From a virus (taxonomy: Duplodnaviria; Caudoviricetes), in IMG/VR virus record IMGVR_UViG_3300043756_000110, positions 1 to 57,013 of that record: DNA of 57,013 nt; one strand, 5' to 3'. A program made the position numbers and the translations under genes. Below are positions 1 through 57,013 of the stretch, in pieces. Each line of letters opens with the position of its first letter. The first letter of the stretch is position 1. The notes beneath the pieces are model-generated. The model saw only the letters and a list, made by a program, of their open reading frames with translations. It was not told the DNA's origin and searched no databases.

Positions 1-159
1 GGTGCCGGACCCCGGGTCGTCCACACCGCAAGAGCTGATCCAGATGAAGGTTTCGTTCGACATCAATGACGGGTCGTTCACCAAAGACACTTACTATTAC
101 CCGGTTTCCACATCCATTCTCGGAGCGGCTGCGGATACGGGCAAGCCTCCCGCCTCCGA
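1..159 (+). repeat. Terminal direct repeat, left copy (circular assembly overlap)
   Basis: 1-159 matches 56855-57013. The first 126 bp are identical, then there are 3 substitutions (127, 133, 142). Confidence 0.95.
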
Positions 160-3346: not shown

Positions 3347-3988
3347 ATGCCGTTCGAAAACCCATTCCTCAACACCTTGCGCGGAACCACCGTTCCGACG
3401 TTCACGGCGTCCGGAACGCAGGACATCGGACAAGCGGGTAACTTCTTCCGAACGCTTCTCGGAGGCAATCGGCAGGCGATCATGCAACAGGCCTCGCCGG
3501 CGGCAAATGCAGCAAGAGAAGCTGCGGATGCGGCGAGGCGGGAGGCCGCCGCTCGAGGGACAGCGAGGACCGGTGGAGCAGCGGCGCAGAGTGCACAAAG
3601 CGAAGATGAAATCCGGAAGCAGATCGATACATTGATTGGTCAGCAGCAAGCTGGAGCTGCACAGTCATTGGCTGGAATCGGTTCAGAGGAACTCAATACG
3701 ATGATGAATGCACTGAATATTGGAACTCAGGCCGCACAGTCGGATATCAACTCGCGGCGCGCGGCGACAGCATCCATGCTCAGCTCACTGATTGGTGGTG
3801 CAGCGAATGTCGCCACAGGAGGCGTTTACGGAGCGCTGAGCGGTGCGGCGAAAGCATTGAGTCCAACACCCTCGATCAGTATGCCGCCCATCAGTACTCC
3901 GACCTATTCCCAGCCGCTCGGACAAATTGGTGCCGCGGGAGGAGGTCTTTTCCCACCGACGACCGATATCGCTCCACCTTTATTCTAG
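3347..3988 (+). CDS. Putative ejection/internal virion protein
   Basis: Ala/Gln/Gly-rich helical protein with a GxxxG-type C-terminal segment; first of three helical genes after the nozzle, as in P22/T7-like ejectosomes. Confidence 0.45.
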   Translation: MPFENPFLNTLRGTTVPTFTASGTQDIGQAGNFFRTLLGGNRQAIMQQASPAANAAREAADAARREAAARGTARTGGAAAQSAQSEDEIRKQIDTLIGQQQAGAAQSLAGIGSEELNTMMNALNIGTQAAQSDINSRRAATASMLSSLIGGAANVATGGVYGALSGAAKALSPTPSISMPPISTPTYSQPLGQIGAAGGGLFPPTTDIAPPLF

Positions 3989-5333: not shown

Positions 5334-7805
5334 ATGCCGCAAAAAGACGCTATCGATGAATTCATCGCATTGCCGAACGACGAGCAGATGCGGCGGCTCG
5401 GAGCGCTGACCCGCGATAAGCAGGATCTTTTACTTCAGAAAGTTAAAGAGCGTCGATCCAAACAGCCATCCGCTATAGGACAGACCACTGCACCCGTGGC
5501 AACTTCGACTACGAAAGTCCCTGTCGCAACACCAACCGCACAGCCAAAAGGGAGACCGTTCCCGACTGTGCAATATCCAAGTACGGCGGCGACAAAACAA
5601 AAGCAAGATCAACTGGCAGACCGCCGCGCAATTGCGCATGCGCAATACTTATCGAACCTCCCCAGCTTCAGCCGACCCGAAAATTACCCCGCATGGCAAG
5701 CCCCCCTCGATCTTGCGATCGGTGCTGAGCAGATGTTGGGTATCGATCCCATGCGTCCCATCGCGACAACGCCAGGAGCCATTAAAAACCTGTGGCAGAA
5801 CCTCATGCAGTTTGGAAATATTCAAACCGATCCAGGGGGAACCAAATCGATACCTGCGATGTGGGAGGCGATTAAGAGAACTGCCACAGCGGCGAATCGA
5901 GCACGTCAAGAACAGAATCTTCCAGAGATGTATCAATCCCTTGGGCAATTCGGTGTAGCGGCGCAACCTGTGGCGGGTGCTGTTGAAGCGGGTCTCGGTG
6001 TTGTTCGAGCAGGTGCTGGTTCTCTTGCCGATGTCGCGGGTTTGCGTGAGCGAGCACGTAATGTTCTGCGACAGTCGCTCAAATCAACACCTGAAGAGAT
6101 TGAAAAACCTAAGCTTGAAGAAGCCTCGGCAAAGATCGCGGAAACGCAGCAGAAGCAAGCGGAGGCAAATCTGGCTGCGGCGGAGAAGACACAAGCATCA
6201 AAGGAGAAAGTGGCTCAGGAGGTGGAAGAACGTCGCACTGCAGCTCATAACGCAGCTCGAGGAGAAGCTCTTGATCGTAGTGTTCAAGAAGGTAGCACGC
6301 GTCTGGGTGAACGTGTATCCGACTTGGATGGGAAACTTCGCCAAGAAGGAAACGAGAAATATACCGCCGTCCGTAATGCCGTAAAAAACGATCCGGGAGT
6401 ACCACTGGCCGGCTTGGCACAGGCCGCGAAGCATGCTGAAGACAACATCCTGAAGGGTTCGCCCGAAAATATTAAGCAGTTCCGTGATCTTGCGCGCAAA
6501 GCGCCAGAAGAAGCGGGAGTGCAAACGAGTATAGGTGAACTGCAACCTGGCGATCCGCTATACGAACGTCTCAAATCGGAGGGCGCGCTAGATCTCGGCG
6601 GCAACATTACGTTCGATCAACTTCAAGGATATTCGTCGGAGATCGGCGAAAGATTGGCGCGGGGCGGTTTACAGGGTGATGTCTATCAGGCGTTGAAATA
6701 CCTGAAAGACGAAATCGATAAGGCCAAGACAACGATTGCGGAGCGTAATAACGCCGGCGGTCTCCTTCGCAATGCGGACTCCTTCTGGCGGTCGTACATG
6801 GATCTCTTCTACGACTCCGATAGCGCACTCGCCAAAGTTCGAGAAGGTGTCGGTACTAAAAACCCCTCCGAAGCCTTTAATGAATTTATGCGTGGAAGAG
6901 GGGATGAAATTGCGATTGGACGCTTAAAGCGACTTCGCACTCGACATGCCGATGATGCCAGTGCAATTGCGGATCTGAGTCAGAATCTCAAATCAGCCAC
7001 GAGAGAAGCGGATACATTAAAAGGAACCAGGGTTCCAGGGCGTCCAGAACCACCGACCCGCGCCGTTCCTAAACAGATCCCCCAGGAGCAATTGCCGACC
7101 GTCGAGAGTTTCGCTAAGGTGCGACGGGAAAAACTTCTGAACACATTTCGTAACTGGCGCGCGACCTCCATCTTCGAACTCCATCGTTTGGGTTACGCGG
7201 TGAACGCGGCCACTATCGGTTTTGTGGCAGGGCATAGTTTCGCCACTGCTGGCCTCGGAGCCGTCATTGCGTTTGCAACTCCTAAGATTGTCGCCGCTAT
7301 CATGAGTAATCCCGAGATACTGGACTTTCTGACCGCTCCGACCGAAGACATCATGGACGCAGCGGAGAATCTGCCACCGGACCAAAAATTAAATTTTCAG
7401 AACAACGTTCGTGATGCTATTAACCAGAGTCAGGCTGCTGGCCGACCGGTGAACGTATCACCGAGAATGTCCCGTTTCCTGGGGCTCACTGCCGTTGGTG
7501 CAGTGACAGCACCCGTACAGAATCGGAAGGACGCGATGGAACGCCTCGGCCGTAATCCCACTAATCCGACTCAACCGTCAGCTTCTGCTCGGATCACACC
7601 ACCTGCTGCCAGACCCGCTACAGCTGCAGCTTCGATGACGCTGGACGACTTTAATGCTCGACTCGATCGGCTGCTGCCTCCAGGTGATGCACGGTTTACT
7701 GATGCGAACCGGAGATTCAGCGTCATGGCTGGGGACGCGCCGGCCAGCCAGTTGGGCGACATCTTAGCCAGAGCGCAGGCGGAGGCGGTCAGAATAGGCC
7801 GATGA
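5334..7805 (+). CDS. Putative large ejection/DNA-transfer protein
   Basis: 823 aa, coiled-coil rich, with a late hydrophobic segment (IGFVAGHSFATAGLGAVIAF); last gene of the late operon. Confidence 0.45.
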   Translation: MPQKDAIDEFIALPNDEQMRRLGALTRDKQDLLLQKVKERRSKQPSAIGQTTAPVATSTTKVPVATPTAQPKGRPFPTVQYPSTAATKQKQDQLADRRAIAHAQYLSNLPSFSRPENYPAWQAPLDLAIGAEQMLGIDPMRPIATTPGAIKNLWQNLMQFGNIQTDPGGTKSIPAMWEAIKRTATAANRARQEQNLPEMYQSLGQFGVAAQPVAGAVEAGLGVVRAGAGSLADVAGLRERARNVLRQSLKSTPEEIEKPKLEEASAKIAETQQKQAEANLAAAEKTQASKEKVAQEVEERRTAAHNAARGEALDRSVQEGSTRLGERVSDLDGKLRQEGNEKYTAVRNAVKNDPGVPLAGLAQAAKHAEDNILKGSPENIKQFRDLARKAPEEAGVQTSIGELQPGDPLYERLKSEGALDLGGNITFDQLQGYSSEIGERLARGGLQGDVYQALKYLKDEIDKAKTTIAERNNAGGLLRNADSFWRSYMDLFYDSDSALAKVREGVGTKNPSEAFNEFMRGRGDEIAIGRLKRLRTRHADDASAIADLSQNLKSATREADTLKGTRVPGRPEPPTRAVPKQIPQEQLPTVESFAKVRREKLLNTFRNWRATSIFELHRLGYAVNAATIGFVAGHSFATAGLGAVIAFATPKIVAAIMSNPEILDFLTAPTEDIMDAAENLPPDQKLNFQNNVRDAINQSQAAGRPVNVSPRMSRFLGLTAVGAVTAPVQNRKDAMERLGRNPTNPTQPSASARITPPAARPATAAASMTLDDFNARLDRLLPPGDARFTDANRRFSVMAGDAPASQLGDILARAQAEAVRIGR

Positions 7806-7817
7806 CTTTTAATAGCC

Positions 7818-7856
7818 GGATGATTATGAAAATAAGGATCAAGCTGATAATCATCC
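7818..7856. terminator. Inverted repeat at the end of the late operon, possibly a bidirectional terminator
   Basis: GGATGATTAT(7818-27) / ATAATCATCC(7847-56), located between convergent transcription units; no strong U-tract. Confidence 0.3.
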
Positions 7857-7930
7857 AAGAGGCTGGAAATGGAACGGGTTCATCATTCATCACGGTTCAT
7901 GATTGTTTGTAACACACTAATGATTCAAAC

Positions 7931-8030
7931 GGCCATAAGCCCCACGCCTTGCCCAGCCGGGCCCCACCGTACCCTGCCTAGCCTTGCCGCGCTAGGCCTT
8001 ACCTTGCCTAGACCAGCCAAGTCTCGCCGT
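7931..8030 (-). ncRNA. Orphan GGY-NN pentamer-repeat guide-like RNA unit H
   Basis: 18 dinucleotides in strict 5-nt register (plus: ac tt ca gg cc gt ct ta tt gc ag tt tt ta ca aa tc gt), ending in the hairpin GGG-GCU-UAU-GGC-C (one G.U pair). Confidence 0.75.
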
Positions 8031-8037
8031 ACAGTTG

Positions 8038-8067
8038 TTGTTAACACAGATTCATTTGTATTACAAT
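8038..8067. promoter_or_regulatory. Overlapping divergent sigma70-like promoters
   Basis: Minus strand: TTGTAA(8066-61)-17 bp-TGnTAACAA(8043-38), aimed at unit H. Plus strand: TACAAT(8062-67), 7 nt before ATG 8075 (possible leaderless mRNA). Confidence 0.4.
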
Positions 8068-8074
8068 TGGATTA

Positions 8075-8302
8075 ATGACATTTGATGAATTACAACTACT
8101 GACAGAGAAGAACACGAAGGCGATTGCTGAATTAATTGTAGTTTCACGAACTGTACTAGATCACGCCAAAATTGTGAGCGCAGATCTGGAGAAGTCCACA
8201 AAAGAGATGAACGATCGGATGAATGCGCTCATCCACATCGTCGATGACTTGGTCCGTGACCGCTGGCGCCGGAAGAATGAGAACGGCGAAAAGAACCAAT
8301 GA
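8075..8302 (+). CDS. Small coiled-coil protein
   Basis: Heptad pattern; ATGA overlap with the next gene. Confidence 0.55.
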   Translation: MTFDELQLLTEKNTKAIAELIVVSRTVLDHAKIVSADLEKSTKEMNDRMNALIHIVDDLVRDRWRRKNENGEKNQ

Positions 8303-8502
8303 ACCGGCAAGTGCGACTGAATCGGCGTGTGGAGAAGATTCGCCGGGAAGCGTGCGAACGGTTCACTAAAGATGCGGTTATCCAGTGCCGAGTTGAAGTG
8401 CGACAAATGGATCAACTCAAAGAATTAGCTCAAACCCAAGGACTCTCCGTCAGCGCACTGACACGCATGTGGCTTCTCGAACGCCTTCGCGAAGAAAAAT
8501 GA
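8299..8502 (+). CDS. Ribbon-helix-helix (CopG-like) DNA-binding protein
   Basis: IQCRVE..QMDQLKELAQTQGLSVSALTRMWL fits the RHH pattern. Confidence 0.6.
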   Translation: MNRQVRLNRRVEKIRREACERFTKDAVIQCRVEVRQMDQLKELAQTQGLSVSALTRMWLLERLREEK

Positions 8503-9419
8503 TCTCGTCCGCCGAACTCCTTTCCAATTTCGAACACTGCCAGCGCTGGGGCTATTACTCCCAACACTGGCGCAAGCACCGCATGTCGTCCTTAGAAATG
8601 TTCAACACTGCGGTGCGGCAGGCGCTCATTGAAGATCGACCCGATCCTGGGGAGAACGCCGGCGAGATCATGATGACCATGGCGCGCGATCGCGGCCTCG
8701 AGCTCACCGACAGCATCAACACCTATCGCTGCGCTATCAACCATGCTGCCGCGGCGGATCTCGTCGTCACCGCGATCCGGGAGAAAAATCAAGAGGTCTG
8801 GCGGTCGCTACCGAATAAGGTGAACGGTTGGTGGGCCTCCGGGATGATGGATCCCAGTGGAAACTTTTTGAGGCGCTTCATCGCCGTATCCTCGTGGAAT
8901 GAAGATCGTGAATTCTACGAGAAGCATTCCTGGTACGTGCTCGGGGATGTCGCGCATTACATGATGCCGATGCAGTTAGTCGTTGCGGTGATGGGATCCA
9001 TGCAGAGCGGTCGGCGCCACGGCTACTGGTCGAAGGGCTTGTTACATCCGCACTGGAATCAAGTGCGGTTTAAGCTTCGCCGGCGCAGCCGAGTTGAGGG
9101 ATTCGTGGATTCATGGCAAACCTGCTTCCGGGAAGATCACGATGAGATCAGCCGGGAGAAGTGGTTGCAGGGGATGATTGAGGATGAGGTGCTGCAGCAA
9201 TCTTTATTCGTGATTAAAATTCCTGTGCCGGAGGAGACCGCCCTCGACAAGATTAGGAGCCTCGCCACACGACAGCTTGAACGTCTGCGCGCACTGAGCG
9301 ATCTTCCGGAAAAACAATTGACGACCTGCCACAATCCCCTTGCGCCATGTCCATTCAGGGCTTGCTGCTGGTCGGAACCGGAGTCGAAGCCGGAGGATAG
9401 CGGCTACGACCCCGTATGA
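8499..9419 (+). CDS. Cas4/RecB-like PD-(D/E)XK-fold protein with an Fe-S-type Cys signature
   Basis: N-terminal SS..LL..FEHCQR and C-terminal TCHNPLAPCPFRACC. Start reassigned to ATG 8499 (ATGA overlap). Catalytic (D/E)xK is not obvious. Confidence 0.55.
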   Translation: MISSAELLSNFEHCQRWGYYSQHWRKHRMSSLEMFNTAVRQALIEDRPDPGENAGEIMMTMARDRGLELTDSINTYRCAINHAAAADLVVTAIREKNQEVWRSLPNKVNGWWASGMMDPSGNFLRRFIAVSSWNEDREFYEKHSWYVLGDVAHYMMPMQLVVAVMGSMQSGRRHGYWSKGLLHPHWNQVRFKLRRRSRVEGFVDSWQTCFREDHDEISREKWLQGMIEDEVLQQSLFVIKIPVPEETALDKIRSLATRQLERLRALSDLPEKQLTTCHNPLAPCPFRACCWSEPESKPEDSGYDPV

Positions 9420-9422
9420 AGA

Positions 9423-9824
9423 TTACGCTCTCTTCTTCATGAACCCTGGCATGATGCCGGCGTCCATGCGCTCTTGGGCGACACGCTTCGCCTGCTTCTT
9501 GCGGTTCGTCTTCCCGACCTGATCGTGTTGTCTGGCGATAATCTCAGCAACCTTGGGCGGTATGACCAGTCGGATCGTACCGCTGGAAGATGAATGCATC
9601 AGAAAGATCGTGTCACCGACCTCCCGTTGCCGGAACGTTTGCACTGTGAACATTTCCACGCCACCGATACCAAACTGTGGAATGTGCTGGTGCGGCGTCG
9701 GTCGGGTCTGAATGACATCGGGTAATCCATCCAGACTTCCCATCAGGCGGGAATAGTTGTCCACGGTTGGCACGTGATCACGCACGTGCGTAATTACATC
9801 ATTGTCTTCATCATGTGATCTCAT
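9423..9824 (-). CDS. Hypothetical protein
   Basis: RBS AAAGGAG upstream of ATG 9824 (MRSHDED...). Confidence 0.6.
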   Translation of the reverse strand: MRSHDEDNDVITHVRDHVPTVDNYSRLMGSLDGLPDVIQTRPTPHQHIPQFGIGGVEMFTVQTFRQREVGDTIFLMHSSSSGTIRLVIPPKVAEIIARQHDQVGKTNRKKQAKRVAQERMDAGIMPGFMKKRA

Positions 9825-9861
9825 TCTGTCTCCTTTAATGAAAGCTAAAGTCTCAACCTTC

Positions 9862-9888
9862 ACTATATAGTATACCACACAATGTCAA
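9862..9888 (-). promoter_or_regulatory. Sigma70-like promoter
   Basis: Minus strand TTGACAttgtgTGgTATACTatatagtg: perfect -35 box and extended -10-like boxes, but spacing is non-canonical. Confidence 0.35.
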
Positions 9889-9901
9889 CAGCCCGTTAGG
9901 T

Positions 9902-10312
9902 TTATCCAACCGGCTCATCGCTCAAGAATTCATCCGGATCCGCCGAGTTGCCCGACGGCTCTACTCGCACCGGCGGCGTCGATGTCGTAAGCCGTCCCGC
10001 TGACGGCATATATTTCTGCAGCCAATCCTCCTGGCTCGTCGGAGTGGGTATCGGAACCGGCGCGACCCGCGCCTCGTCACTGCTTGGCCCAACTTCTCGA
10101 TCCCTCGATGAAGCCGCTGGCGGTTCCGATAGCGCGGACACGAGATTCTCGAGATACGGAATCCGTACAGAGAGGTACTCCAGTTTCCGGAGCGTTTCCG
10201 TGCGTTGTGCCACTCTCCGCTCCAGCTCGGCCTCGGCTTTACTCAAAGCGGATTCGTAGATGGTGCGGCGTGGTTCGCGCCGGCGCCGCGGCCGCGTCTT
10301 CTTCCTTATCAT
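9902..10312 (-). CDS. Hypothetical protein (basic N-terminus, coiled coil)
   Basis: ATGA overlap with the upstream gene; part of the leftward operon. Confidence 0.5.
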   Translation of the reverse strand: MIRKKTRPRRRREPRRTIYESALSKAEAELERRVAQRTETLRKLEYLSVRIPYLENLVSALSEPPAASSRDREVGPSSDEARVAPVPIPTPTSQEDWLQKYMPSAGRLTTSTPPVRVEPSGNSADPDEFLSDEPVG

Positions 10313-10656
10313 CTGACATGCTCCTTTTTCTTCTGATCCTTCACACGCGCCGCCTGCGTTTTGAATTTAAATAATGCCAGCTGCATTGCGGTGTCCTCTT
10401 TGTGCTCCTCTGCATACTCGAGTTTCTGCTTCTCTTCTTCCGACAGATCGGTCCAGACATAAGGCCAGCGGTTTTCCGGATGCGCCACTTCCCATACTTC
10501 GACGAGATCGGTTTCCACCTGATGCTGACATTTGAAACAGACGCCGGCGTGACGATAATCGATCAACTGACAGAGCCGACATGTGAGAAGCTTTGGCGGA
10601 AACCATGCGCGCTTCTCGCGATCCAATTCCCTGGCGAAGGCTTCTCTCAGCGTCAT
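10309..10656 (-). CDS. Zinc-finger-like hypothetical protein
   Basis: CRLC...CFKC; starts just after the unit G hairpin. Confidence 0.55.
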   Translation of the reverse strand: MTLREAFARELDREKRAWFPPKLLTCRLCQLIDYRHAGVCFKCQHQVETDLVEVWEVAHPENRWPYVWTDLSEEEKQKLEYAEEHKEDTAMQLALFKFKTQAARVKDQKKKEHVR

Positions 10657-10668
10657 TCATTTCAATCT

Positions 10669-10753
10669 GTGCATAGCACCCATGCCTAGCCCTGCCTTAC
10701 CTTGCCTCGCCGAGCCCAGCCATACCGGGCCCTGCCCCGGCCTCACCTGGGCC
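10669..10753 (-). ncRNA. GGY-NN guide-like RNA unit G
   Basis: About 14 units (plus: at ta ct tt tt tc ga ca at gg ct ccg tc tgg; two 3-nt irregularities at the 5' end), then hairpin GGG-UGC-UAU-GCA-C. Confidence 0.75.
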
Positions 10754-11000
10754 TGTCTGACTTATTCCGTGTTGTCTCCGAACAAACTGGACTGCAATCG
10801 TGTTGATGTCTTGGATTCAAGCCTCGTGGCTGCCGTGCTTCGATTGGTAGAAGACAAATCCCGCAGCGGCCGGTTCTCATGTACTCTCCAGGCTGGTATT
10901 GCGGTTCGGATATCGGCGTCGGCGTGGGGAACGAATCCCAGTCGATCTGCAAGTCCGGAAGCAACGGGTCTTGCGGTTTGTTGGGTTTTTGCTTTGCCAT
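10743..11000 (-). CDS. Small Cys-containing hypothetical protein
   Basis: CGIC...CSPVC. An alternative frame (10762-11010) also exists. Confidence 0.4.
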   Translation of the reverse strand: MAKQKPNKPQDPLLPDLQIDWDSFPTPTPISEPQYQPGEYMRTGRCGICLLPIEARQPRGLNPRHQHDCSPVCSETTRNKSDRPR

Positions 11001-11010
11001 TCCACACCAT

Positions 11011-11322
11011 TCAAGGACACCTCATGAAAACGCGCATGCGTGAACCGTTCTGGCCCAGGCGTGAGGCGTGCGTGCATTCAATCCGATGAATTCTCGCTAA
11101 TGCGTGGGCTATGCGGCGTAGTCGCTTCTGTATCGCCGGATCTTCAGCATCAAATTCCAACTCCTTACAAACATCCTCAACGGTGAACCACTTTCCTTTC
11201 GCATCGAAAAGGACGAAGAATATATCCAAGCTGTCGTTCAGCGCCTGGAACCGTCGGTAGCGGTAATTCTGGCGCGCTCCCCTTATATGAACGCGACCAC
11301 GGGTTGTCATTTCCTTCGTCAT
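11011..11322 (-). CDS. Putative winged-helix DNA-binding protein
   Basis: WFTVEDVCKEL...KRLRRIAHALARIHRIEC resembles a wHTH. Confidence 0.45.
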   Translation of the reverse strand: MTKEMTTRGRVHIRGARQNYRYRRFQALNDSLDIFFVLFDAKGKWFTVEDVCKELEFDAEDPAIQKRLRRIAHALARIHRIECTHASRLGQNGSRMRVFMRCP

Positions 11323-11342
11323 GACTCACTTTTTAAATTGCT

Positions 11343-11427
11343 GTGCATCGCACCCATGCCAAGCCAAGCCGTACCGTGCCATCCCCGGCCTCACCAGGCC
11401 TTGCCGAACCGCACCGTGCCCTGCCGC
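11343..11427 (-). ncRNA. GGY-NN guide-like RNA unit F
   Basis: 15 dinucleotides (plus: at aa aa gt gt at cg tc ag tt ga gc gt ct gc), then hairpin GGG-UGC-GAU-GCA-C. Confidence 0.8.
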
Positions 11428-11438
11428 CTTGATTTTCC

Positions 11439-11538
11439 GGTCATAGACCCCATGCCAAGCCGTGCCGCACCGCACCGTGCCTTGCCGCACCAGGCCTAGC
11501 CCAGCCAGACCGCGCCAAGCCTCACCGCGCTGGGCCGA
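11439..11538 (-). ncRNA. GGY-NN guide-like RNA unit E
   Basis: 18 dinucleotides (plus: at aa gt gc gc gt tt gc ag ta ca ag gc aa tc gc gg ga), then hairpin GGG-GUC-UAU-GAC-C. Confidence 0.8.
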
Positions 11539-11546
11539 ATTTCTTT

Positions 11547-11621
11547 GTGCATTGCACCCACGCCCCGCCGTGCCCAACCAAGCCAAACCAAACCACGCCT
11601 CACCAAGCCTCGCCCCGCCTC
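11547..11621 (-). ncRNA. GGY-NN guide-like RNA unit D
   Basis: 13 dinucleotides (plus: ac cc gt ca aa aa aa ac tc aa tc cc tc), then hairpin GGG-UGC-AAU-GCA-C. Confidence 0.8.
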
Positions 11622-11623
11622 AC

Positions 11624-12136
11624 TTATTTCTTGTCCTTCGCCATGACCTTCGGCGTCATTTCGGGTGGTCCTGGAGCTAATGACCGGAATTGACGCGACT
11701 CGATCATTGCTGAATAGACGTGTTTTGCGGCCAAAATACGATGATCTTTGATCTTGCGTTCTTGTTCGGTCAGATCGGAGTCGGCGATATTTGCGACGGC
11801 GCGATGCGAATGGCGAACCTTCCGACCTGCATGCTGATCGAGATCTCCGGAATACTCCAATTGCTCAGATGCCGACAACACGCGAATTCCAACACCAATG
11901 TCTCCCCTAAGATCGCCCCGTATTTCGATTCCGGTTTCGCGGGCGACTTTTTTACGCCACCGCACAACCACGGTTTTATAACGACTCGTGTCGCGCTTTA
12001 ATCCGGTGACACGCTCGAGCTCTTCATGTTTGATTGTCGAACCGCGCAGACTTTGAATGTCCGTGAAATGTTCAGTCAATTTCCGGATTTCAAAATCTGT
12101 TGGCAAACCTTTCGTAAAAATATTCGCTTCGGTCAT
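11624..12136 (-). CDS. Hypothetical protein embedded in the repeat locus (candidate accessory protein)
   Basis: Likely true start is MTEANIF at 12136. The longer N-terminus in the ORF track is translated repeat. The ATG lies inside the unit C hairpin. Confidence 0.7.
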   Translation of the reverse strand: MTEANIFTKGLPTDFEIRKLTEHFTDIQSLRGSTIKHEELERVTGLKRDTSRYKTVVVRWRKKVARETGIEIRGDLRGDIGVGIRVLSASEQLEYSGDLDQHAGRKVRHSHRAVANIADSDLTEQERKIKDHRILAAKHVYSAMIESRQFRSLAPGPPEMTPKVMAKDKK

Positions 12137-12275
12137 AGACCCCCTGCCTTGCCTCACCTTGCCCTGCCTTGCCTGACCGCGCCGCGCCGTGCCAGACCCA
12201 ACCACGCCCTGCCGTGCCGCGCCCAACCGCGCCATGGCCGGCCTTGCCTCACCACGCCGAGCCCCGCCCCGCCAT
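12131..12275 (-). ncRNA. GGY-NN guide-like RNA unit C
   Basis: 27 dinucleotides in register, then hairpin GGG-GUC-UAU-GAC-C. Confidence 0.8.
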
Positions 12276-12284
12276 TTCGTTTCT

Positions 12285-12419
12285 GGTCATCGACCCCATG
12301 CCCTGCCCCGCCTTACCGCGCCGTGCCGCGCCGAACCACGCCAGACTCTGCCATGCCCCGCCTCGCCCTGCCGCGCCCTGCCATGCCAAACCGAGCGGAG
12401 CCATGCTCTGCCGCGCCCG
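12285..12419 (-). ncRNA. GGY-NN guide-like RNA unit B
   Basis: 25 dinucleotides in register, then hairpin GGG-GUC-GAU-GAC-C. Confidence 0.8.
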
Positions 12420-12438
12420 AAATCCATAATTTCGATGT

Positions 12439-12508
12439 GTGCATTGCACCCTCGCCACGCCTTGCCGAACCGAACCGCGCCGGACCCTGCCGTGCCGAGG
12501 CCGGCCAC
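12439..12508 (-). ncRNA. GGY-NN guide-like RNA unit A
   Basis: 12 dinucleotides (plus: tc ac tt ga ga gc gg ct gt ga cg ac), then hairpin GGG-UGC-AAU-GCA-C. Begins 4 nt after the stop of the RAMP-like gene. Confidence 0.8.
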
Positions 12509-12512
12509 GAAC

Positions 12513-13184
12513 TTAAAGCTCAGTGAGCGCCGCCAGCTTAAACATCCCATATGGTCCGGGCTTTTGCGAACCGGGACGCCAATCGCAAAGACCTCTGTAA
12601 TTTCCAGCGTGTTCCAGGATGTTTCTAATGACCGATTCCGTAATGCCATCATCCCAAACTGTAATCGTAAACTCTAGACTCCATGAATCAAATCGCGGCC
12701 GTACTCGGATATGTTTCGTTTTTCCATTGATTTTGGCGCGCTTGGTGAATAGACGGAATCCTAATTTCTTTGTGGCTTCCAAATGATCCGTAAATTTGTT
12801 CTTTCCCATTAGCGTCTCAATCGGAGCCCATGGAATACTCTTTCCGTCCACAATTAGTGGAATAAACATATCGTCCACTTTCATTCCACTCTGCGTTTGT
12901 GCTTTAAATGTTTTTGCGCCTCGAGTGCTTCCCGTCGGCACGAGCATGCCGCCCTCCATCATGCAGGTCGATAAGTTATCGCTCGCTATACAGATCTGTT
13001 TACCATCGTGATAGACAGATCCGATCCATCTATACGCTGGACTCCGATCATCGCCAGCTTTAGAGTTGGCTTTGTTCTTGGGATCCTTTTTCCACTCCTC
13101 CATTTGATCCGCCCACTCAATGTTGTCCCAATGCATCAGAAGCGGTGTCAGTCCTTCCAATATCACGGCGTAAGTTCGAATCAT
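12513..13184 (-). CDS. Stand-alone Cas7/RAMP-like RNA-binding protein (Vipr-like effector)
   Basis: N-terminal strand with LEGLTPLLMH, HIRVRPRFDSWSLEFTI, and C-terminal glycine-rich loop AGNYRGLCDWRP..GPYGMF, matching the RAMP signature layout. No other cas effector genes. Confidence 0.75.
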   Translation of the reverse strand: MIRTYAVILEGLTPLLMHWDNIEWADQMEEWKKDPKNKANSKAGDDRSPAYRWIGSVYHDGKQICIASDNLSTCMMEGGMLVPTGSTRGAKTFKAQTQSGMKVDDMFIPLIVDGKSIPWAPIETLMGKNKFTDHLEATKKLGFRLFTKRAKINGKTKHIRVRPRFDSWSLEFTITVWDDGITESVIRNILEHAGNYRGLCDWRPGSQKPGPYGMFKLAALTEL

Positions 13185-15656: not shown

Positions 15657-16079
15657 ATGGTGTTTAAAAAAATGACGTATGGGCAGATCTTACGATATTT
15701 CAGGGAGAAGGCCGGCAATGAGTCCAAGACCGCGTTTGCCCGCCGACTAGGAATGATGGCGTCGAATCACTATATCGGTGCCGAGAATGACCGTGAGGAG
15801 AAGAAACCGTCACTCGATTTGCTGGAGCGGGCGGCGAAGCTCGCAGGGCTGGAATTCCAAGACTTCATCAACCCGCCTCACGAGAATCGATCCGAGAAGC
15901 AGTTCCGTGTTGAGAACAGAGAACTCCATCGACAACTTGAAGCTGTCCTGAACCGGGATGATGATGTCTCGGACTGGCTCGCTTCCAACATTAGTGTCTT
16001 CTATCACCGTTTCTTCGGTGGGGCTGAGGGCATCGAGATTGAAACACATCAAAGACGTCAGGCAAGGCGTCTAAAATAA
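15657..16079 (+). CDS. CI-like XRE HTH repressor (no S24 peptidase domain)
   Basis: YGQILRYFREKAGNESKTAFARRLGM...ENDREEKKPSLDLLERAA; divergent from the cro-like gene. Confidence 0.75.
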   Translation: MVFKKMTYGQILRYFREKAGNESKTAFARRLGMMASNHYIGAENDREEKKPSLDLLERAAKLAGLEFQDFINPPHENRSEKQFRVENRELHRQLEAVLNRDDDVSDWLASNISVFYHRFFGGAEGIEIETHQRRQARRLK

Positions 16080-16380
16080 TATCGGGTACCTCGATCTCAC
16101 CTAGAACATGTTCCGGCAGCCGTAAATGATTGGTGATCACGAATATCTTAATCCGCGGCCGGAAACGGCCGACGACCAGATTGTGCAGGCCGTGGCGCTT
16201 GCGTAGTCGAGATCGAAATTCATTGAAGACCTCCGGCAAGACATCGAAGATCTCCGGCAGAATGTTGCCCTCACCGGCAACGCACTGCTCAAGCCGATGG
16301 TGATTGGTGACGATGAACACTTTGTTCGTGGGAGTATGGTACGGGCCGCTAGCTACACTGTGACCGCTCAGAACTGACAT
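15991..16380 (-). CDS. Hypothetical protein with an internal tandem duplication
   Basis: RBS AGGGG; two ~40-aa repeats (KVFIVTNHHRL..LPEVFNEFRSR / KIFVITNHLRL..LPDVFDVFQSR). Confidence 0.55.
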   Translation of the reverse strand: MSVLSGHSVASGPYHTPTNKVFIVTNHHRLEQCVAGEGNILPEIFDVLPEVFNEFRSRLRKRHGLHNLVVGRFRPRIKIFVITNHLRLPEHVLGEIEVPDIILDALPDVFDVFQSRCPQPHRRNGDRRH

Positions 16381-55441: not shown

Positions 55442-57013
55442 TCGGCAACGCCAAACCTTCAAAGCGAGTTTTCGCGGGATGAACACCCACGAACCACCGG
55501 ATGCGGAACCCGCAGGAAAGTGGCCACTCGCGGTTAACATCCGTGCGGATGGCGACAACAAAATCCGAACCCGCCCCGGTTATGACAAAGGTTGGGACAC
55601 CGGAACCGGCGGGCCAATTACCGATATCGGTAGTTACGCTGCACTCAATACGGATAGCCAGCCGCGGATTCTCATCCATGATGAAGCCGGTCATGTGTAC
55701 TTGGATCCGCCGGTCGGAACTCCTGGCGCTTTCGAGAATAAGGGAACAGTCGGTAGCGGGGGCGTGGGGGCGAGCATCATTCCGTTCCGACCATCGGCGT
55801 CGCCTCAGAGTTGGGCTTACATTGCCAACCCGACGGGATATGAAAAGTTCTCTGCGCCGGATTCCAACAATGATGTCGTGGCTCAGAAGGTGGGGATTGC
55901 CGAACCCCAGCCGCAACCGGAAATGGTTCCGGACGGATTCTACTTCCATGAATTCGGGGGTGGGGCGGGCAATTACATTCCAAGCGGGCATGCGACCAAT
56001 CTTCACGATGTGATCCGGTTGCAGGATACGGTAGGCGTTGTCATTGCCGACCCCGTTCAGCCGCCAGATATCAATCAGCGCTACTACATTCAGGTCGGTG
56101 GTATCAGTACCTACAACAACCCTGCCGATGCCGCTTCGGGCCTCATCACGCTTCCGAATGGAACCACTCAATCCGCACAGTATCAGTTGCCCATTGCTTA
56201 CCAGATTGGAATGTTGCTGCTCTTCGGCGGCACGGTGACTCCGGGTGCTCTTGGCTTTGTCATCTCGAACCCGGTTGCGCGCACGGTGGTGGAAGATGTG
56301 ATGTATCCGCTCCAGGATGAGGGCGGCATTGTTATTCAAGAGATTTACTACTTTGAAGGCCAGATGACGGGCACTCGGCACCGCTGTGTGATTGTGCCGA
56401 ACCAGATTGGCCTCTTGAAGCATTCGATTGTGGCCGGGGAAGGTCAGCCTGCCGGGGCCATTCAGCCGCCCTTTATCAATCCGGTTGCGGGCCTGCGCCG
56501 GGGTTCGATGATTCAATTGAATGGGGGCGAAGTGATCCTGGTGGAAGCGATGATCCTAGGACCCACCGGACAAGTGGCCATCTACACCGCGACGACGGGA
56601 TTCCATGCCGTGGGAGAAACGATTACAGGCGTGACATCGCTGGCGGTAGCGAACATTGACCCATCGATTTCAGGCATGACCGTCCGCTCGCCTCAGATCA
56701 ACTTTCAGGTGACTTCTGGATTGTCGGCGGTCACCTTCGGGGGTTCCGGACTTGGCGGCTTGCCTCCGCCCATCACGCCCAATCCATTTACCTTGCCGCT
56801 TGGGGATATGGGCATCCCGCAAGAAAACGATTTGGTGCACATCTCGCTTTCGGTGGTGCCGGACCCCGGGTCGTCCACACCGCAAGAGCTGATCCAGATG
56901 AAGGTTTCGTTCGACATCAATGACGGGTCGTTCACCAAAGACACTTACTATTACCCGGTTTCCACATCCATTCTCGGAGCCGCTGCCGATACGGGAAAGC
57001 CTCCCGCCTCCGA
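55434..57013 (+). CDS. N-terminal part of the large tail (nozzle-like) protein, continuing at 2-2605
   Basis: RBS GGAGG, GTG 55434, MADRQRQTFKASFRGMNT...; open to the window end and in frame with ORF 2-2605. Missing from the ORF track. Confidence 0.8.
   Translation, partial: MADRQRQTFKASFRGMNTHEPPDAEPAGKWPLAVNIRADGDNKIRTRPGYDKGWDTGTGGPITDIGSYAALNTDSQPRILIHDEAGHVYLDPPVGTPGAFENKGTVGSGGVGASIIPFRPSASPQSWAYIANPTGYEKFSAPDSNNDVVAQKVGIAEPQPQPEMVPDGFYFHEFGGGAGNYIPSGHATNLHDVIRLQDTVGVVIADPVQPPDINQRYYIQVGGISTYNNPADAASGLITLPNGTTQSAQYQLPIAYQIGMLLLFGGTVTPGALGFVISNPVARTVVEDVMYPLQDEGGIVIQEIYYFEGQMTGTRHRCVIVPNQIGLLKHSIVAGEGQPAGAIQPPFINPVAGLRRGSMIQLNGGEVILVEAMILGPTGQVAIYTATTGFHAVGETITGVTSLAVANIDPSISGMTVRSPQINFQVTSGLSAVTFGGSGLGGLPPPITPNPFTLPLGDMGIPQENDLVHISLSVVPDPGSSTPQELIQMKVSFDINDGSFTKDTYYYPVSTSILGAAADTGKPPAS
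56855..57013 (+). repeat. Terminal direct repeat, right copy
   Basis: Matches 1-159. Confidence 0.95.

Follow-up and report, generated by a model that had tools for sequence, protein, structure and literature searches.

A vrRNA-like repeat unit 4.5 kb from the vipr gene in a soil phage genome

Introduction

Does a guide-like repeat unit that stands several kilobases away from its presumed effector gene belong to a known type of guide system, and could it still act as a guide? The question is raised by unit H, at positions 7931–8067 of the window, by which we mean the whole 57,013-nt stretch of phage DNA from the IMG/VR record IMGVR_UViG_3300043756_000110. The two ends of the window (1–159 and 56855–57013) repeat each other with 98% identity, and the sequence probably represents a whole phage genome that has a terminal repeat or was assembled with an overlap. 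A first-pass annotation of this sequence had described H as an independently expressed guide acting in trans with a RAMP-like protein, and had implied a new kind of system. The latter does not hold, as the VIPR system has already been described in three 2026 bioRxiv preprints, which are the source of the account given here.

In VIPR (Viral Interference Programmable Repeat) the phage RAMP protein Vipr polymerises on vrRNAs, which are made up of 9–16 GGY/NN (YNNGG) repeats and a conserved 3' tail (bioRxiv 10.64898/2026.04.26.720920). The minimum is at least four repeats, in which GGY is conserved and NN variable. A vrRNA is expected as a small RNA of ∼100 nt that co-purifies with Vipr. The NN dinucleotides read dsDNA with one base skipped between them, and binding silences transcription; the published sets contain no self-targeting match of ≥80% (bioRxiv 10.64898/2026.04.26.720920). 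Seven VIPR types have been published in the 2026 preprints. Solo vrRNAs are also known already, from elements without vipr: those of F5 satellites and VIPR-null phages redirect the Vipr of another element (bioRxiv 10.64898/2026.10.15.759431).

Results

Repeat anatomy of unit H

CC recurs strictly every 5 nt on the plus strand between 7942 and 8028, with 15 CC and three misses at 18 register positions. Read on the minus strand, the unit has two parts:

7944..8028, minus strand: guide region of H, 17 GGYNN pentamers
7931..7943, minus strand: start of the 3' tail of H, GG and then the hairpin GGCU-UAU-GGCC (4-bp stem, 3-nt loop)

GGY is canonical in 14 of the 17 pentamers. The three pentamers that have lost GG, numbers 2 (GACTT), 4 (GTCTA), and 8 (AGCGC), all lie in the 5' half, and even these keep the pyrimidine at position 3, which is thus present in 17/17. 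The final nine pentamers are canonical throughout. All four bases occur at positions 4 and 5 (NN). The hairpin at 7931–7941 (minus strand), GGCUUAUGGCC, follows directly after the repeats and GG, and its stem contains a U·G wobble for which pairing is possible solely in minus-strand RNA.

The repeat pattern is real and well outside what chance gives: across 100 block-shuffles the longest period-5 run reached 10 hits at most (mean 6.5), compared with 15 for H. In thermodynamic folding H alone was no more stable than its shuffles (z = 0.11), which is expected of an unstructured guide and lends no support to it either. Searches across the whole window gave no Rfam match at the gathering threshold and no tRNA with ARAGORN.

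The Vipr protein and the main locus

The window contains eight period-5 runs, each with 11–26 CC in register and always with CC on the plus strand; no comparable run was found on the opposite strand of the window, save a 6-hit chance run at 1133. Of the 132 pentamers in the eight units, 131 have C or T at position 3. Seven of the units have the same build as H and lie at 10669–12506 (minus strand) beside a gene with a predicted RAMP fold. The locus reads as follows, in the direction of transcription:

12513..13184, minus strand: vipr gene, 223-aa RAMP protein, ending 7 nt ahead of U1
12439..12506, minus strand: vrRNA unit U1, 11 pentamers and hairpin GUGCAAUGCAC
12285..12417, minus strand: vrRNA unit U2, 24 pentamers and hairpin GGUCGAUGACC
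12131..12273, minus strand: vrRNA unit U3, 26 pentamers and hairpin GGUCUAUGACC, with an AUG from which the 170-aa gene starts
11624..12136, minus strand: candidate vipr-accessory (vap) gene, 170 aa, phrog_5926 (function unknown)
11547..11619, minus strand: vrRNA unit U4, 12 pentamers and hairpin
11439..11536, minus strand: vrRNA unit U5, 17 pentamers and hairpin
11343..11425, minus strand: vrRNA unit U6, 14 pentamers and hairpin
10669..10736, minus strand: vrRNA unit U7, 11 pentamers and hairpin

The hairpins that end these seven resident units are either GTGCNATGCAC or GGTCNATGACC. U2 lacks GG in three of its 24 pentamers and is about as degenerate as H. Both U2 and U3 are well above the 9–16 repeats of the SUSP1 and Pseudomonas fulva clades, and one internal degenerate pentamer in each might mark the junction of two guides.

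The 223-aa protein matched the PDB chain 36pp_D, annotated as "SUSP1 Vipr protein", with E 2.1e-7 in phmmer, and a profile of 36 homologues matched the same chain with E 1.3e-13. It has no match in Pfam and belongs with phrog_4652 (function unknown; E 2e-20). An AlphaFold model (pLDDT 84, pTM 0.81) gave 71 Foldseek matches in the PDB at E ≤ 1e-3, led by Csm3 and type VII Cas7 chains. The first-pass annotation had called the effector RAMP-like, and both the predicted fold and the profile match to SUSP1 Vipr bear this out. A TRAP-like ring protein binding 5-nt-spaced triplets, an early candidate, was dropped after the Vipr match appeared.

In the cryo-EM structure of SUSP1 Vipr, G1 and G2 are bound by H17, R138, D177, and W178, and the adjacent G-loop residue R179 contacts Y3 (bioRxiv 10.64898/2026.04.26.720927). 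The residues H18, R162, D201, W202, and R203 of the 223-aa protein align with these five positions (H17, R138, D177, W178, and R179, respectively) and are invariant in the alignment of 36 homologues. Because of the Vipr profile match and the conserved GG-binding residues, we conclude with high confidence that the locus is a VIPR system and that H is a vrRNA-type element of this known system. The guide-like character claimed for H fits with this, its anatomy being that of a vrRNA (GGYNN repeats and a 3' tail).

Homologs of the 170-aa gene were identified with tblastn in 102 of 190 Vipr loci, and its protein has no match among PDB sequences. It is probably the vap gene of this Vipr clade.

Tail hairpins in related Vipr loci

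The Vipr family is large (2024 proteins at E ≤ 1e-3). We fetched 190 loci around Vipr homologs, 183 of them unique, from IMG/VR, GTDB genomes, and metagenomes, and GGYNN units were found in 173 of the 183. All units in these loci (519/519) lie on the vipr strand, as seen for H.

GG followed by a 4-bp/3-nt hairpin with AUG is common to H and the seven other units of the window, and a 4-bp-stem hairpin with a NAU loop and a following G ends 70 of 502 distinct units from 38 sources (the window counting as one source). Among loop-junction triplets AUG is the most frequent by a wide margin (70 of 157 hairpins); it is not among the five commonest types of shuffled tails. Compensatory stem changes are many across 68 tails; as the rows were chosen for pairing, this is a descriptive observation only.

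H ends, 3' of its 17 pentamers and GG, in GGCTTATGGCC (7931–7941, minus-strand reading), and its stem GGCU/GGCC does not occur among the seven resident units, which have GUGC or GGUC. The first-pass annotation had called it a variant hairpin. It does differ from those of the residents, but it is not degenerate, and it represents a recurrent tail type among relatives: the exact stem (GGCT/GGCC) follows 10 of the 502 distinct units of related Vipr loci. The closest relative, L111 (85% Vipr identity, 4.1-kb contig), carries seven units whose tails belong to the same family, stems GGCT/GGCC and GGCC/GGCC among them. As six stem types are mixed in this one array, the specificity of Vipr is probably not governed by the type of stem. 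A more distant relative (L112, 68%) carries GGCC/GGCC, a close variant of the H stem; its units lie beside vipr only, with none in the 10 kb downstream.

A scan of IMG/VR for the tail motif of H gave 27 loci, three of which are real units (≥9 repeats), all ≤141 nt from vipr. One IMG/VR contig (L286) carries a 4-repeat GGYNN stub with the exact tail hairpin of H at about 1980–2018 and has no Vipr homolog within 2 kb of it; this stub could be a short solo or relic vrRNA. When the NN series of H was compared with 641 other units no copy was found, the best overlap (69% over 8 repeats) being at the level of shuffled controls.

Placement of H and its neighbors

The distance of about 4.5 kb from the effector proved accurate: the first pentamer of H lies 4485 nt from the stop codon of the RAMP gene (12513 − 8028), and the nearest other unit is 2640 nt away. 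The divergent three-gene cassette reported beside H is also present. It occupies 8075–9419 on the plus strand, between H and the main locus, and is convergent with three minus-strand genes at 9423–10656. The genes around H are:

5334–7805, plus strand: 823-aa ORF, on the upstream side of H
8075–8302, plus strand: 75-aa cassette gene, divergent from H
8299–8502, plus strand: 67-aa cassette gene, divergent from H
8469–9419, plus strand: 316-aa cassette gene, divergent from H

The upstream plus-strand genes had been labeled a tail operon, a label that we could not uphold, since none of them, including the 823-aa ORF, matches a Pfam or PHROG family. A 33-codon ORF for a hydrophobic peptide lies at 7789–7890 (minus strand), ∼40 nt downstream of the H hairpin; it overlaps the end of the 823-aa plus-strand gene by 17 nt and is without a clear ribosome-binding site.

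Published vrRNAs are intergenic, flank vipr, and lie on its strand. H shares the strand and is not a neighbor of vipr. Among the 183 unique loci, 513 of 519 units lie ≤1.5 kb from vipr, and only two of 183 other loci have units beyond this distance: in L177 three units and a vap homolog are found 2.5 kb downstream of vipr (3433–3650), and in L105 three units lie 5.1 kb downstream (15729–16082), where there is no second vipr. A dispersed vrRNA within a VIPR-positive genome is accordingly a rare case (arrays >1.5 kb away in 2/183 other loci). Adjacency to vipr is typical of vrRNAs and not a strict requirement, since solo vrRNAs have been published.

Related phages were identified through the 316-aa protein, which belongs to a small family of 32 proteins. 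A total of 13 IMG/VR phage loci carry its gene, on contigs of 34–136 kb (most 57–64 kb), and it is a core gene of these related phages without VIPR. An 823-aa homolog lies upstream of the 316-aa gene in 10 of the 13, and in nine of those 10 the match ends within ∼280 nt. None of the 13 loci has a Vipr, a 75-aa gene, a 67-aa gene, or a GGYNN run of ≥7 within 7 kb, and a whole-record search of five of the 13 records found no Vipr. H and the genes for the 75-aa and 67-aa proteins thus fill a slot which in the relatives is either short or has other contents. The presence/absence comparison, with H missing from 13/13 VIPR-less relatives that share the 316-aa gene, shows that H moves together with VIPR, not with the phage backbone. 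This comparison is one with VIPR-less relatives; the L111 contig ends inside the 316-aa gene, short of the position of H. A blastn search of 7000–9500 against 50,697 phage records gave nothing, as did the 316-aa protein as a single-protein query against IMG/VR.

In two of the relatives (L239 and L243, both at 6925–6996) a tRNA-Asn gene is found between the 823-aa homolog and the 316-aa gene, and the slot looks variable for small-RNA genes. The model of the 316-aa protein (pLDDT 81.5) has weak Foldseek matches (E 0.05–0.5), of which the top ten are nearly all PD-(D/E)XK nucleases of the Cas4, AddB/AdnAB, or lambda-exonuclease type. In 26 homologs of this protein, three C-terminal cysteines are present without exception.

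Promoter-like sites

Two promoter-like sites were considered in the region between H and the cassette:

8038..8066, minus strand: proposed H promoter, TTGTAA (8066–8061), 17 nt, TGT-TAACAA (8046–8038)
8038..8067, plus strand: better promoter-like site, TTGTTA-18-TACAAT, 9/12, called by the scan

H had been given its own promoter in the first-pass annotation. The hexamers and spacer are present as described, but the site is weak. It has 7/12 consensus positions plus TGn and a −10 without the final T, a score to be read with the reservation that the sigma-70 consensus may not apply to this DNA, for which the single run listed is a DNA run from a soil metagenome. The consensus promoter scan did not call this minus-strand site and called the plus-strand one instead. 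A start ∼7 nt past the −10 would fall 2–5 nt ahead of the first pentamer of H, which is a neat fit. The plus-strand site ends 7 nt ahead of the ATG at 8075. Four promoter-like sites were found in the whole region, compared with 3.4 expected in shuffles.

The two sites lie face to face on the same bases (8038–8067), so that the −35 of one roughly coincides with the −10 of the other. Transcripts of the 75-aa/67-aa/316-aa cassette that start from the plus-strand site would be near-leaderless.

Target searches

Targets were searched for by replacing each GGY with one wildcard and requiring an NN match of ≥80% on either strand, following the published rule (bioRxiv 10.64898/2026.04.26.720920). No self-target of H was found in the window (best 20/34, 59%), in agreement with the published absence of self-targeting, and the best match in the window with 1-nt skips for any of the eight units was 52–73%.

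The 190 Vipr loci (1.9 Mb) contained no H target of ≥80%; the best match, 21/34 (62%), was at shuffled-guide level, and neither the vipr genes nor the vrRNAs of these loci were matched. The best match in five whole and seven partial VIPR-less relatives (0.4 Mb) was likewise 21/34 (62%). With only the nine intact 3' repeats of H, nothing above shuffles was found in the related phages. Finally, three exact 8-dinucleotide seeds gave 1, 22, and 23 loci in IMG/VR (46 loci), where the best full-length match was 25/34 (74%). All target scores of H (59–74%) are at shuffle or chance level.

Discussion

H has the repeat anatomy, tail type, and strand of a vrRNA, and the same genome encodes a Vipr with the conserved GG-binding residues. 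The reading that we prefer, with a probability of roughly 0.55, is that H is a functional solo vrRNA which loads the phage's own Vipr. Since H is not adjacent to vipr, it would have to act in trans, as the first-pass annotation had proposed. Minus-strand transcription of H would yield an RNA of ∼100–120 nt, on which Vipr protomers from the gene 4.5 kb away would polymerise, one per GGYNN. Each GGY would be flipped into protein pockets and the NN dinucleotides would face outward. The resulting filament would then bind dsDNA that matches the NN code with one base skipped between dinucleotides, and would silence transcription there, the likeliest site being a competing phage, prophage, or satellite. 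That H is loaded, that the filament binds DNA, and that this silences transcription we infer from the SUSP1 work. The suggestion that units can be relocated as modules is consistent with the absence of H from 13/13 VIPR-less relatives, with the distant arrays in 2/183 loci, and with the lack of a copy among 641 units. The loss of GG in three of the first eight pentamers, the weak and uncalled promoter, and the lack of a ≥80% target among the sets searched (best 59–74%) speak against a functional guide.

The same three observations speak for H as a decaying relic: a vrRNA copy that recombination or a gene insertion has cut off from the array and whose expression or loading has ceased. The degenerate pentamers (3/17) are all found in the 5' half, the scan called no promoter for H, the searches gave no match of ≥80%, and units nearly always adjoin vipr (513/519 within 1.5 kb). 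However, the pyrimidine at position 3 has been kept in all 17 pentamers including those without GG, and there is no degeneracy in the nine 3' repeats or in the tail hairpin. U2 in the main locus is degenerate to about the same extent (3/24 without GG), and internal degeneracy is described as frequent in vrRNAs (bioRxiv 10.64898/2026.04.26.720920). Decay is the next most likely reading, though we regard it as rather unlikely. It is less probable still that H is a solo vrRNA in a special role, redirecting or titrating the Vipr of a rival phage, or controlling the divergent promoter or the small downstream ORF in cis through a Vipr filament on this RNA or DNA. The solo vrRNAs of F5 satellites and VIPR-null phages are precedents for redirection (bioRxiv 10.64898/2026.10.15.759431), the stem GGCU/GGCC is foreign to the seven resident units and in use in L111 and other relatives, and 8038–8067 is shared by the two opposed promoter-like sites. 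Yet L111 mixes six stem types, so the stem likely does not decide Vipr specificity, and H matched neither the vipr genes and vrRNAs of the 190 Vipr loci nor any self-target in the window. A protein-coding role can be rejected. The plus-strand ORF 7869–8075 (68 aa) has an open frame and ends in a TAA that shares a base with the next start codon, the ATG at 8075 (TAATG). But coding sequence does not have a strict period of 5 nt, this repeat is found eight times at non-coding positions of the window, the ORF has no Pfam match, and a Pro/Ala/Leu-rich peptide is what any translation of NNRCC repeats gives.

The AUG of each tail hairpin is so placed that it could serve as a start codon. In U3 (12131–12141, minus strand) the 170-aa gene starts at the hairpin AUG. 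The tail AUG of U6 (11322–11353, minus strand) opens a 9-codon mini-ORF with a TGA overlapping the ATG of the next gene (ATGA), and that of U7 (10654–10679, minus strand) a 5-codon mini-ORF with its TGA directly ahead of the next ATG. L111 (2603–2660 and 3535–3570) again has such an overlap at one unit, and at another the AUG is in frame. The vrRNA tails may be coupled to the translation of the interleaved genes. A bolder version, which we consider very doubtful, is that the tail does double duty in this Vipr clade: the AUG, present in every hairpin, would serve as start codon or open a mini-ORF with a stop next to or overlapping the following start codon, Vipr loading or vrRNA processing would gate translation, and H would be a mobile regulatory module. 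If this were true, H would be a self-contained module consisting of the promoter pair and the hydrophobic ORF, and more than a spare guide.

What is added here to the known VIPR systems is a distal vrRNA unit in a VIPR-positive phage, along with a Vipr clade with a hairpin-type tail, of which the window is a soil-phage example distant from SUSP1. If H is expressed and loaded, vrRNA genes could function as free-standing modules anywhere in a genome. This would bear on the annotation of VIPR guide repertoires and on how solo vrRNAs arise.

Comparison with known systems

The closest characterized systems are the type II VIPR of Escherichia phage SUSP1 and of a Pseudomonas fulva prophage (bioRxiv 10.64898/2026.04.26.720920; bioRxiv 10.64898/2026.04.26.720927). 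The window shares with them the GGY/NN pentamers with a conserved 3' tail, the location of the units on the vipr strand, a Vipr RAMP partner with the same GG-binding residues, and the lack of a self-target. It differs in the tail, which in the window is a 4-bp hairpin with a NAU loop and a following G, whereas SUSP1 has a pseudoknot tail. The Vipr itself is distant from that of SUSP1, and the single-sequence match spans residues 128–205 only. The units are interleaved with protein genes, and two of the window units have 24 and 26 repeats compared with the published range of 9–16. H lies 4.5 kb from vipr, whereas in SUSP1 the vrRNAs sit on either side of the two protein-coding genes of the locus.

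The solo vrRNAs of F5 satellites and VIPR-null SUSP1-like phages (bioRxiv 10.64898/2026.10.15.759431) resemble H in being single vrRNAs without an adjacent vipr that would act in trans with a Vipr encoded elsewhere. Their elements are without any vipr, so that they use the protein of another element or mark the site of a vipr-vap1 deletion. H, by contrast, belongs to a VIPR-positive phage and has six unrelated genes between it and its own locus. We found no description of a distal unit inside a VIPR-positive phage in the available portions of the 2026 VIPR preprints.

The crRNA/Cas7 backbone of class 1 CRISPR systems is similar in having a RAMP filament on a guide RNA with periodic base flipping, and orphan CRISPR arrays show that guide genes can stand away from effector genes. 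VIPR has a 5-nt period in which three bases are sequestered, class 1 CRISPR a 6-nt period in which one base is flipped, and target pairing in VIPR is noncontiguous, unlike that of class 1 CRISPR. The window also differs from CRISPR systems in being without CRISPR repeats, adaptation genes, or an Rfam match.
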